Sequence record: NC_054918.1
DNA: 64,000 bases
Source: Escherichia phage vB_EcoM_G4498
Strand: one strand, 5' to 3'
Below are positions 1 through 1,470 of the stretch, one piece after another; the first letter of the stretch is position 1, and each line of letters begins with the position of its first letter. The notes under the pieces are model-generated. The model did no database searches, was not told the DNA's origin, and worked only from the letters and a program-made list of their open reading frames with translations. The translations under genes and the position numbers were made by a program.

Positions 1-212
1 AGTCCGTCAACTTCAATATTTAAATCGGTACGCCAGCGAAGTCCTTCCCATGCGAAGGCTTTAAAGTCAGAAGCCTTTGTAGCTAAGTACCGTTCAATAG
101 GAGCTGTTTTAGGGTCAAAGCCGTTTCCCGATCGGTAGGTCCACTCATCTTTGTTAATGCCTTTGGCCTTTACTACAGAAGCTTCGGCAATAAATTCTTG
201 ATAGGTTTTCAT
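1..212 (-). CDS. Internal protein-like (capsid-targeted), partial; continues beyond window start
   Basis: ATG at 210-212; my rc translation begins MKTYQEFIAEA (T4 internal-protein capsid targeting signature) and runs open to position 1. Confidence 0.6.
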   Translation of the reverse strand, partial: MKTYQEFIAEASVVKAKGINKDEWTYRSGNGFDPKTAPIERYLATKASDFKAFAWEGLRWRTDLNIEVDG

Positions 213-240
213 GTGTTTCCTTGTTTGTTTTGATAGAGTA

Positions 241-270
241 ATTATACCATATTAATACTTAAGCGTAAAC
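241..270 (-). promoter_or_regulatory. T4 early-type promoter (-35 GTTTAC, 18 nt spacer, -10 TATAAT)
   Basis: minus strand GTTTAC (265-270) and TATAAT (241-246), about 29 nt upstream of the ATG at 212. Confidence 0.55.
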
Positions 271-273
271 CGT

Positions 274-534
274 TTAAGCTTTACCGCCAGAAATAATTCC
301 GAAGTTGTTAAAATCATATCCAATATCGTCAACATCTACTTTAGGACTTGCTACAACATAAGCAATTTCACTACGTTTTGCACAGGTGTTGATTTCTTTA
401 CCATCGCCACCTAAGAAAGAATACCCATTACGTTTTAATGAGCCAAAGTCTTCCGCATCACCAATGAAAGCTTTAACTTTAAATTTAGAACCTTTGGCAT
501 CTGCTTCAACGATAAATTCTTGATACATTTTCAT
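274..534 (-). CDS. Internal protein-like (capsid-targeted) small protein, 86 aa
   Basis: ORF with ATG at 534; N-terminus MKMYQEFIVEA matches the CTS motif. Confidence 0.7.
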   Translation of the reverse strand: MKMYQEFIVEADAKGSKFKVKAFIGDAEDFGSLKRNGYSFLGGDGKEINTCAKRSEIAYVVASPKVDVDDIGYDFNNFGIISGGKA

Positions 535-672
535 TTTTCCTTAGTAAATTGATTTACCAAAGTATTTGTACCAAGTCGGACGTTGATCAATTTTTTCATC
601 TAAGCGTGCTTGATTTATCGCAATGGACGCTTCGGACGGGTCATAATTTCCTCCAAGTAGTTGATGAATGTA

Positions 673-701
673 TAGTATCAAAACCCTTGGAGGAAGTAAA
701 C
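673..701 (-). promoter_or_regulatory. T4 early-type promoter (-35 GTTTAC, 17 nt spacer, -10 TACTAT)
   Basis: minus strand GTTTAC (696-701) and TACTAT (673-678). Confidence 0.45.
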
Positions 702-703
702 AA

Positions 704-985
704 CTATTTTTCTGAAGCGCCTGAAATATATTTTTCAAGACGTTGTTTCATCAGCGAGCCGTTCTTAGCGATTTCTTCCGGTTTATCGCACATACGCAAC
801 AAGGCTTCAAGCTTAACGATATCACTGGTGCGCTCAAATTTGCGAGTATCTATCTTACTAGCAAGTTCAGAAATACGTGCTAATAGACTTTCAGCTTCAA
901 CCAAAGCTGCACCTAGCTTAGTTGCAAATGTGTCAGTAGCTTCGTTAAGAATAGATTCTGATAAAAATTCACTATATGTTTTCAT
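704..985 (-). CDS. Internal protein-like (capsid-targeted) small protein, about 93 aa
   Basis: ORF track start at 1000 is TTG; in-frame ATG at 983-985 gives [10 protein letters not shown] and forms an ATGA overlap with the lysozyme stop. Confidence 0.65.
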
Positions 986-1470
986 ATATACGCTTTCCAA
1001 GTTCCTGTTTTAAATGTTGAGATTACGCGTTTCGCGCGATTAGGTGTCTGACGATACCATTTAGATTGGGCTAGATTTACTGCCGCTTCGTCCCAACGTT
1101 TCTGTTGAAGCATACGCAAAGAGTTAGTAAATCCTGCCACGCCAGTTTCTCCCATTTGGAAGACCATATTAATCAATGCACAGCGACGAACCGCATCAAG
1201 AGAATCATAAACCGGTTTTAATTTAGCATTTCTCAGAATTCCGCAAACAGCAGCATCAACATCCTGATTAAAGAGTTTTTCAGCCTCATCTTTTGTAATT
1301 ACACCATTGCAATTACGCCCAATAGCTTTGTCTAATTCAGATTTAGCAACATTAAGTGATGGACTTTTAGTAAGCAAATGACCGATGCCAATAGTGTAAT
1401 AGCCTTCTGTGTCTTTATAGATTTTAAGTCTAAGACCTTCATCTATACGTAACATTTCAAATATATTCAT
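982..1470 (-). CDS. e: Lysozyme (endolysin), T4 gene e family
   Basis: 162 aa beginning [35 protein letters not shown], near-identical to recalled T4 lysozyme; strong AGGAGG RBS. Confidence 0.97.

Follow-up and report, generated by a model that had tools for sequence, protein, structure and literature searches.

Introduction

The best described internal proteins (IPs) of phages are those of T4. Each T4 head contains about 300 copies of every IP (PMC9026906). They are small proteins in which the capsid-targeting sequence (CTS) occupies the first 10 residues. Within the CTS residues 4 and 7 are required for targeting and residues 8 and 10 for processing, and the protease gp21 cleaves at the motif L/I-x-E (PMC9026906). 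As to their function, Ip1, Ip2 and Ip3 of T4 each inhibit a distinct GmrSD enzyme (Silas et al.). T4 IPII inhibits GmrSD/BrxU of E. coli ECOR21, and T4 IPIII inhibits the two-gene GmrSD system of E. coli ECOR17 and is needed to infect ECOR17. When ip4 to ip10 were assayed against a panel of GmrSD variants, there was no reproducible inhibition (Silas et al.).

Two IP loci are known, one in the e/denV region and the other in the 57B/tRNA region. According to the literature both are highly variable, with over 30 variants of IPs, and this hypervariability has been described since 1994. Ip5 of the phages T2, RB70 and PP01 was reportedly described by Repoila and co-workers in 1994. The Ip nomenclature used here is taken from UniProt and GenBank names and from later papers. 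T4-type phages also carry promoter-early stem-loop (PeSL) cassettes (Arbiol 2010; Comeau 2014), for whose promoter the PST/T4 consensus is TTTACW-N17-TAYWAT (PMC4122927).

Here we analyse the region downstream of the lysozyme gene e in a stretch of 64,000 nucleotides from Escherichia phage vB_EcoM_G4498 (NC_054918.1); this whole stretch is called the window below. We conclude that positions 1-1000 (minus strand) are very probably the e-proximal IP locus of a T4-like (Tequatrovirus) phage, with cargos which would be packaged via their CTS and probably act against host defences. The genes and the families to which they are assigned are already on record in databases and literature, as is the hypervariability of the locus, and RefSeq already labels the two products that we call ORF-A and ORF-B as internal head proteins. 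The analysis thus carries little weight as a discovery. Its practical value is a corrected annotation, namely an e locus with IPIII, an Ip5-like protein and a third IP, and with no working denV.

Organisation of the locus

An earlier reading of the window from the letters of the DNA (the sequence-only reading) had placed three CTS-bearing genes of the internal protein type directly downstream of e. All coordinates hold, and the genes lie on the minus strand (Table 1). The e protein shares 94% identity with T4 e over 161 residues. The gene order on the minus strand, e - ORF-A - (denV) - ORF-B - ipIII, is common to many sequenced Tequatrovirus genomes, and the context agrees with the T4 arrangement e-ipIII-ipII-denV and with the relatives G8 and Lutter. 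Like ipIII and ipII of T4, the genes are found directly downstream of e, where they flank a denV remnant. The three genes after e are ordinary members of the known, highly variable T4-type IP locus. Compared with T4 the number of IP genes at the locus is raised from two to three; ipII is found nowhere in the window, and denV has been inactivated.

Table 1. Positions of genes and sequence elements at the e-proximal IP locus
Feature	Position	Strand	Remarks
Lysozyme gene e	982..1470	minus	162 aa; C-terminus ...TGTWKAYI*; PF00959
ORF-A, Ip5-like internal head protein	704..985	minus	93 aa
ORF-B, internal head protein	274..534	minus	86 aa; CTS MKMYQEFIVE
ipIII, 5' part	1..212	minus	first 70 codons, cut by window edge; CTS MKTYQEFIAE
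denV (endonuclease V) pseudogene	541..644	minus	from alignment with the intact gene of phage Lutter
PeSL-like element	648..701	minus	early sigma70-type promoter TTTACT-N17-TACTAT inside inverted repeat
Two exact T4 late-promoter boxes TATAAATA	1504-1497, 1491-1484	minus	upstream of e
Hairpin over e Shine-Dalgarno	1471..1500	minus	arms 1471-1481 and 1490-1500; -14.9 kcal/mol, z -4.6
Putative sigma70-like promoter upstream of ipIII	241..269	minus	TTTACG-N17-TATAAT (extended -10); consensus match only

ORF-A, ORF-B and ipIII are real genes, as they are under purifying selection and kept in hundreds of genomes. Two further candidates were rejected. A TTG at position 1000 was considered as the start of ORF-A and ruled out, since every homologue begins at the ATG of the CTS. 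A plus-strand ORF of 154 aa (549-1013), antisense to ORF-A, was set aside as spurious on account of its overlap with conserved genes of the minus strand. Of ipIII only the 5' third falls inside the window.

CTS, putative cleavage sites and packaging machinery

Tyr4, Phe7, Ile or Leu at position 8, and Glu10 are present in all three proteins. The L/I-x-E sites are LSE10 and LNE15 in ORF-A, IVE10 in ORF-B and IAE10 in ipIII. At the DNA level the CTS-coding 32-mers at 181-212, 503-534 and 954-985 form one direct-repeat family; relative to the reference copy, identity is 84% and 72%. It had also been claimed that the phage encodes seven CTS proteins within about 9 kb. This count is borne out, as window positions 1-8820 contain seven CTS-like ORF starts against 0.005 expected from 200 shuffles of the window, and in all seven an L/I-x-E protease site ends at residue 10. 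Three of these proteins are encoded at the e locus, three (Ip9, Ip7 and Ip8) at the 57B locus and one near the tRNA genes. The cargos were said to differ from each other and from the array at 57B, and indeed no significant mutual similarity is found among the seven past the CTS.

Head machinery of the T4 type is encoded at window positions 35551-38841. Identity to the T4 counterparts is 99.5% for the protease gp21, 98% for gp22 over its first 128 residues, and 100% for gp68 as well as gp20. Therefore the apparatus which reads the CTS is effectively that of T4. If they behave like T4 Ip1-3, ORF-A and ORF-B would be packaged into the head and injected; a literature search for virion proteomics showing ORF-A or ORF-B in particles returned none.

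Relationships of the three proteins

ORF-A and the named protein Ip5 are paralogues. It matches phrog_3499 with an E-value of 1e-46 (1.2e-46), and Ip5 of PP01 matches the same family at 3.7e-50. The identity between ORF-A and Ip5 of T2, RB70 and PP01 (UniProt Q38378) is 48-52% over about 90% of the length. Both proteins share the invariant core motifs KLG.AL.EAE, RI.ELA and EIAKNG as well as L/I-x-E sites at residues 15, 30 and 40. They differ in their genomic location, as the gene of Ip5 lies beside 57B in the ipI locus whereas ORF-A is found in the other IP locus in an ATGA overlap with e. Furthermore the C-terminus of ORF-A is 8 residues longer, and at a pI of 6.3 its mature form is close to neutral, in contrast to the basic Ip5 (pI 9.2). 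The exact ORF-A sequence is present on 541 public contigs. There are 231 phage records with ORF-A at an identity of at least 95%, and clustering at 90% identity groups it with an ORF of phage RB69. The dN/dS ratio is 0.14. The AlphaFold2 model of ORF-A is a three-helix protein (pLDDT 74). A Foldseek search with this model against BFVD returned an Ip5-family protein as top and sole match, and against the PDB the best E-value was 2.5. We therefore abandoned a structure-based function for ORF-A, the model having matched its own family only.

ORF-B matches phrog_2667, annotated as 'internal head protein' (E 2e-19). Judged from sequence comparison its family is distinct from IPI, IPII and IPIII of T4. 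ORF-B occurs in 215 phage records, among them those of Salmonella phage S16 and of VR20, and in 163 at an identity of at least 80%. The dN/dS ratio of ORF-B is 0.23-0.31, within a range of 0.14-0.32 across the tested genes with dS values of the relatives up to 0.9. The gene is disrupted in several relatives, by a frameshift in Lutter and elsewhere in truncated or internally deleted forms, and is thus dispensable. An exhaustive phmmer search with ORF-B gave six proteins, of which a WG-repeat protein and a divergent IP were new and informative. Residues 20-59 (approximately) resemble one WG_beta_rep unit of this 7-repeat WG protein (P0112; phmmer E 8.5e-08, library-wide). Against Pfam there was no match of ORF-B even at E-values up to 10, and the gathering score of WG_beta_rep (PF14903) was not reached. 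At the sequence level, the link of ORF-B to this family is one of resemblance and not of membership. The structure model of ORF-B was unusable (pLDDT 48), and a structure-based function was dropped.

The third gene is ipIII of T4. All 70 residues of the cut ORF are identical to T4 IPIII (NP_049735), and the ORF falls in phrog_5341, the T4 IPIII family. At the DNA level the identity to T4 is about 98%, with four nucleotide differences in the coding part, and the homology stops immediately 5' of the Shine-Dalgarno sequence. In T4 ipIII directly follows e; here it takes third place, being separated from e by ORF-A, the denV remnant and ORF-B. The CTS is the same as in T4 but the upstream regulatory region is unrelated. 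IPI and IPII of T4 had no match anywhere in the window. T4 IPII is similar to ORF-A and ORF-B in size, CTS and map position next to denV. We considered whether one of the two ORFs is a diverged ipII. This was ruled out, since BLASTP aligns both proteins with IPII over residues 1-11 only, that is over the CTS, and since the PHROGs differ (phrog_7857 for IPII, phrog_3499 for ORF-A and phrog_2667 for ORF-B).

In the sequence-only reading the content of the locus appeared to differ from that of T4 and to be expanded. The first part is correct for ORF-A and ORF-B, which share only the CTS with IPII, and wrong for the third ORF, whose identity to IPIII over all 70 residues marks it as the conserved T4 gene. 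Nor is such a content special to this phage, given the hundreds of phage records with close relatives of ORF-A (231) and ORF-B (163).

Among more general searches, Pfam and NCBIfam contained no family for any of the three ORFs, and a sequence search of PDB chains with ORF-A and ORF-B gave nothing significant. Word-indexed homologue searches returned shallow families which are confined to T4-like phages.

Expression and probable coupling to e

The late-promoter boxes upstream of e are the only exact ones in window positions 1-1600 and are identical to the T4 sequence. The hairpin over the e Shine-Dalgarno sequesters this site in transcripts started further upstream and would in this way limit e translation to late transcripts, a role described in the T4 literature. 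No exact late box was found before ORF-B or ipIII, and ipII and ipIII of T4 likewise have none. A search of the minus strand for a terminator-like site found none.

The overlap between e and ORF-A is real. The plus-strand sequence at 982-985 is TCAT and reads ATGA on the coding strand, where the ATG of ORF-A (985-983) overlaps the TGA stop codon of e (984-982). ORF-A has neither a promoter nor a strong ribosome-binding site of its own, and its start codon lies on the stop codon of e. We suggest that ORF-A is probably translated by ribosomes which finish e. It would therefore be made from late transcripts only, at the time when proheads form. Such a translational coupling, proposed already in the sequence-only reading, is plausible and gains comparative support. 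In IMG/VR, 21 contigs have an IP start which overlaps the end of e, with a 4-nt overlap in 4 contigs and a 14-nt overlap in 17, and the proteins concerned carry at least eight unrelated cargos. This recurrence in T4-like genomes fits a late-only, e-coupled expression.

Alternatively, the ATGA could be an accident of recombination at the CTS, and ORF-A could be translated independently. A weak GGAA 10-13 nt upstream of the ORF-A ATG could serve for such an initiation; moreover, the existence of two overlap forms implies that the exact geometry between e and the IP gene is not conserved, and T4 manages without any overlap, having a gap of 87 nt between e and ipIII. Against this stands the recurrence of IP start codons on or inside the end of e in the 21 contigs with their unrelated cargos. 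ORF-A also lacks the AAGGAAACA leader which precedes ipIII, both in the window and in T4, as well as T4 ipII, whereas a relative of ORF-A in the other IP locus (P0022) has its own 58-nt leader. In addition there is no space for a promoter between e and ORF-A. Independent translation deserves consideration but seems to us rather unlikely.

The proposed coupling of ORF-A to e could belong to a wider pattern. We tentatively propose, as a possibility which we ourselves regard with some doubt, that the 3' end of e is a conserved docking site for genes of injected proteins, and that ORF-A and ORF-B inhibit host defences that are as yet unmatched. Dual coding is envisaged for many T4-like phages, where the final codons of e (..AY(E/K)NL*) would at the same time encode the start of a CTS (ATGAAAACNTATAA). 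Any cargo recombining behind the CTS would then fall under the late-only translational control of e. The e terminus of T4 itself (TATAAAAATCTATAA) would have been left over from an overlap of this kind, and the window would represent a second version of it, shifted by 4 nt and giving ATGA. The recurring overlap between e and IP starts is a small but testable regulatory idea.

Proposed function of the cargos

We suggest that the IPs of the window act in the following steps. During prohead assembly the CTS would bind the IP to the scaffolding core of gp22. The prohead protease gp21 would then cut off the CTS after an L/I-x-E motif. The mature cargo would remain in the head with the DNA and finally be injected alongside it. 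In the new host the injected cargo would most likely block a specific defence, and our best guess for the target are variant GmrSD-type (type IV) restriction enzymes which attack glucosyl-hmC DNA, as for T4 Ip1-3. Recent work has shown that T4 Ip1-3 specifically inhibit type IV restriction enzymes, a different one in each case, and on this basis it is reasonable to regard ORF-A and ORF-B as candidate orphan anti-defence proteins. The ip4 to ip10 series of Silas and co-workers should, as we assume from its numbering, include Ip5 and thus the ORF-A family. Since no reproducible GmrSD inhibition was seen for ip4 to ip10, a GmrSD target for ORF-A and ORF-B is a putative one.

It is improbable in our view that ORF-A and ORF-B are packaged but play a structural role, in head assembly or DNA condensation, instead of inhibiting host defences. 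In favour of such a role, head assembly in IPIII mutants of T4 proceeds at about half its normal rate, with a burst of about 40% of normal (PMC9026906), to which the copy number of each IP per head can be added. The lack of reproducible anti-GmrSD activity of ip4 to ip10 would be in line with this. However, with a pI of about 6.3-6.4 the mature forms of ORF-A and ORF-B are close to neutral, whereas the T4 IPs are basic (pI 9.0-9.7), and such proteins are poorly suited for neutralising the charge of DNA. The cargo is hypervariable among close relatives and ORF-B is often lost, which is the pattern of accessory genes in an arms race and not of structural parts. Furthermore all three T4 IPs now have defence targets.

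That one or both ORFs are decaying leftovers with a CTS which are no longer usefully made or packaged in an eroding locus is very improbable, for although the adjoining denV is dead, ORF-B is damaged in relatives and exact late promoters are missing before ORF-B as well as ipIII, ORF-A and ORF-B are both intact with dN/dS values of 0.14-0.32 at dS up to 0.9, identical ORF-A copies are as widespread as stated above, and ipII and ipIII of T4, which also lack exact TATAAATA boxes of their own, are abundant virion proteins.

denV remnant and variation of the locus

The 170-bp spacer between ORF-A and ORF-B (535-703) is a dead denV gene with a frameshifting internal deletion of 310 bp relative to Lutter. 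The start codon of denV (644-642) precedes the junction of the deletion (641|640). What remains of the C-terminal part is frame-shifted and extends to 541, and a reading frame of 9 codons is left. Residues 96-137 of T4 DenV match the remnant at 74%.

We suggest that the CTS-coding sequence, which the cargo genes share, and PeSL-like cassettes act as recombination joints at which cargo modules are swapped; this would be the reason why the locus varies between phages. The PeSL-like element after ORF-A may have taken part in this shuffling. As in the described PeSL cassettes, it sits at a module border in a hyperplastic region, and it has the published promoter consensus, a stem-loop and a Shine-Dalgarno sequence. 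The -35 box at 701-696 is taken as GTTTAC and the -10 box is found at 677-672. The inverted repeat is a perfect one of 10 bp with arms at 648-657 and 686-695 (-19.1 kcal/mol, z -4.1). In the PeSL cassettes the stem is located upstream of the promoter, whereas here it encloses the -10 box and the Shine-Dalgarno sequence.

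Internal protein genes downstream of lysozyme e

The minus strand that carries lysozyme e also carries three open reading frames beginning with a capsid-targeting sequence (CTS), at exactly the coordinates proposed in the sequence-only reading. The start codon of the first one, ORF-A (ATG, 985-983), overlaps the TGA stop of e (984-982). The plus strand reads TCAT at 982-985, which gives the ATGA junction that had been noted before. The CTS-coding 32-mers of ORF-A, ORF-B and the ORF cut by the window edge form a single direct-repeat family. Between positions 1 and 8820 we found seven CTS-like starts where shuffled sequences predict 0.005, so the count of at least seven CTS proteins within 9 kb is borne out. 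In all seven copies the L/I-x-E site ends at residue 10. Compared without their CTS, the cargos of all seven, including those of the array near gene 57B, have no significant similarity to one another, as the reading had also claimed.

Features of the locus and further CTS genes in the window
Feature	Coordinates	Strand	Description
Lysozyme e	982..1470	-	162 aa; Pfam PF00959; 94% identity to T4 e
ORF-A	704..985	-	93 aa; CTS-bearing
denV remnant	541-647	-	ATG 644-642; deletion junction 641|640; ends at 541
ORF-B	274..534	-	86 aa; starts MKMYQEFIVE
Cut ORF (ipIII)	1..212	-	70 aa up to window edge; starts MKTYQEFIAE
187-aa CTS ORF	4662-5225	-	MKTYAEFLTE; pI 9.4; corresponds to RB14ORF136
Ip8	7876-8100	-	CTS variant METYQKFIVE; clusters with named K3/RB15 entry
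Ip7	8178-8486	-	UniRef name
Ip9	8548-8820	-	clusters with named K3/RB15 entry

Identity of the three proteins

The cut ORF can be identified as T4 ipIII. All of its residues agree with T4 IPIII (70/70), there are four differences in the DNA, and the homology to T4 around ipIII ends just upstream of the Shine-Dalgarno sequence. Such high identity would make this part of the locus simply the conserved one; ORF-A and ORF-B resemble T4 IPII at the CTS only, with nothing found beyond it. T4 IPI and IPII gave no match when searched against the window, and the PHROGs of T4 IPI, IPII and IPIII are three families distinct from those of ORF-A and ORF-B.

ORF-A falls into phrog_3499 ('internal head protein', E 1e-46), a family shared with Ip5 of PP01. 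The Ip5 proteins of T2 and RB70 are 48-52% identical to it, and RB69ORF127c belongs to its 90% cluster. The exact sequence occurs in 541 public contigs, and UniRef calls the protein 'Internal head protein'. ORF-B falls into phrog_2667, likewise 'internal head protein' (E 2e-19), and is found in 215 phage records, Salmonella phage S16 and VR20 among them; phage BF15 carries the exact sequence. RefSeq labels these genes internal head or internal virion proteins. Judging from dN/dS values of 0.14-0.32, at dS of up to 0.9-1.3, ORF-A and ORF-B are real genes under purifying selection.

ORF-A is predicted to be a three-helix protein, and no structural analogue of the model was found outside its own family; for ORF-B the prediction gave an unusable model. 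In a library-wide phmmer search, ORF-B residues 20-59 resemble one unit of a secreted 7-WG-repeat protein of 417 aa (P0112; WG_beta_rep, PF14903; E 8.5e-08), and the same search returned a divergent 99-aa internal protein (CTS MQTFHEFLVE) which shares its cargo with ORF-B. Pfam's WG model does not match ORF-B. In phage Lutter ORF-B is frameshifted and annotated as two CDS (L003 1776-2031), and in other phages and metagenomes it is truncated or internally deleted (P0004, P0008, P0011). Thus, ORF-B is often lost.

The gene order in T4 is e, ipIII, ipII, denV, vs.8, whereas here it is e, ORF-A, (denV), ORF-B, ipIII, followed by a vs.8-like gene. The suggestion of a different and expanded content therefore stands insofar as the locus is rearranged, has three internal protein genes against two in T4 and is missing ipII. 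It does not stand as a claim of novelty, since the cut ORF is ipIII and ORF-A is present at ≥95% identity in 231 phage records, directly adjoining e among the matches listed. PST and T4 differ in five internal proteins (PMC4122927), and at least ten Ips have been named (PMC12373910). The locus is of an already known and richly sampled kind, with ORF-A and ORF-B in annotated internal protein families.

The junction with lysozyme

Within window positions 1-1600 there are only two exact late-promoter boxes (TATAAATA), both upstream of e and identical in sequence to those of T4. The Shine-Dalgarno sequence of e lies within a hairpin (-14.9 kcal/mol, z -4.6). In T4, early transcripts contain the e hairpin, which keeps e from being translated, and late transcripts lack it. 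Both copies of ipIII, here and in T4, and also T4 ipII are preceded by the AAGGAAACA leader; it is not present before ORF-A, and the junction leaves no room for a promoter. A relative of ORF-A in the other internal protein locus (62% identity) has its own 58-nt leader.

Four IMG/VR contigs have the 4-nt ATGA junction, and in 17 other T4-like IMG/VR contigs (L010 2990-3014; L015-L031) the internal protein starts 14 nt inside e. In this longer form ATGAAAACNTATAA codes both for the lysozyme end ..Y(E/K)NL* and for the CTS MKTY(N/K); the N or K at CTS residue 5 is imposed by our search pattern, which required it since these codons make up the TAA stop of e. The cargos behind the 14-nt junction are of at least eight unrelated kinds, IPII and IPIII homologues included. 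The e terminus of T4 itself, TATAAAAATCTATAA (L002 about 3004-3018), looks like a relic of this overlap with ATG changed to ATA. The arrangement is conserved and fits an e-coupled, late-only translation. The recurring dual-coded junction is only mildly fresh. In contig L019 a 167-aa ORF overlapping e contains an internal degenerate CTS (..KKMNESFLNEAS..). Two cargos appear to be fused here, the internal CTS marking where the second gene once began.

A dead denV between ORF-A and ORF-B

The spacer between ORF-A and ORF-B is denV, the gene of the UV-repair enzyme endonuclease V, with 310 bp lost. Lutter and similar relatives have the order e, ORF-A, denV, ORF-B, ipIII, and in the intact denV of Lutter a 7-nt direct repeat (AATTATG) stands on both sides of the segment deleted here. 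What is left of the gene is an ORF of 9 codons and a C-terminal remnant that is out of frame. By this comparison denV is inactivated by a frameshifting internal deletion. At least six database phages (G8, BF15, Shinka, Phaginator, 235Ecol030PP and vB_Eco-B1.1) align across this stretch gap-free and in one piece, which implies the same deletion; the absence of denV in G8 is confirmed by its annotation. The remnant is preceded by an early promoter of the T4 type (TTTACT-N17-TACTAT), which lies within a perfect 10-bp inverted repeat (648-657, 686-695; -19.1 kcal/mol, z -4.1). It fits the promoter consensus of the promoter-early stem-loop (PeSL) cassettes of the PST/T4 pair (PMC4122927). The hidden dead gene, too, is a finding of only mild freshness.

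Packaging and possible function

In T4, the CTS can bring even foreign proteins into the head. For IPIII, residues 1-10 suffice for packaging; residues 4 and 7 serve targeting and residues 8 and 10 processing, and the prohead protease gp21 cleaves after L/I-x-E (PMC9026906). All three ORFs follow these residue rules. The window also encodes gp21 (99.5% identical to T4), the scaffolding core protein gp22, gp68 and gp20, so the CTS-reading machinery is effectively that of T4. From both points we strongly infer that the three proteins would be packaged, cut by gp21 after L/I-x-E and injected into the host.

T4 Ip1, Ip2 and Ip3 inhibit one particular GmrSD-type restriction enzyme each (PMC12373910). 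Infection of ECOR17 requires IPIII. The IPIII encoded here presumably acts like that of T4, and ORF-A and ORF-B can be regarded as candidates for an anti-defence role. Caution is advised, as ip4-10 had no reproducible match among the GmrSD variants tested, the mature forms of ORF-A and ORF-B are close to neutral, not basic, and ORF-B is frequently broken in relatives.

Other internal protein genes and mosaicism

The CTS array next to 57B (7876-8820) corresponds to the K3 and RB15 proteins Ip9, Ip7 and Ip8. The 187-aa CTS ORF, with the e.x genes on one side and the tRNA cluster on the other, makes a third internal protein site; databases call it 'hypothetical protein', one source a dioxygenase. 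The tRNA cluster (6005-6833, minus strand) has 10 genes (Arg, Asn, Tyr, Met, Thr, Ser, Pro, Gly, Leu, Gln) versus 8 in T4, and no segB homing endonuclease is visible among them.

Over the first 12 kb of the window, none of the database genomes aligns collinearly as a single piece; the best records take six to eight pieces to cover about 90%. The phage is put together, mosaic-like, from known modules. Genes 20, 67, 68, 21 and 22 of the head core (35551-38841, plus strand), with 98-100% protein identity to T4, contrast with the mosaic internal protein loci.
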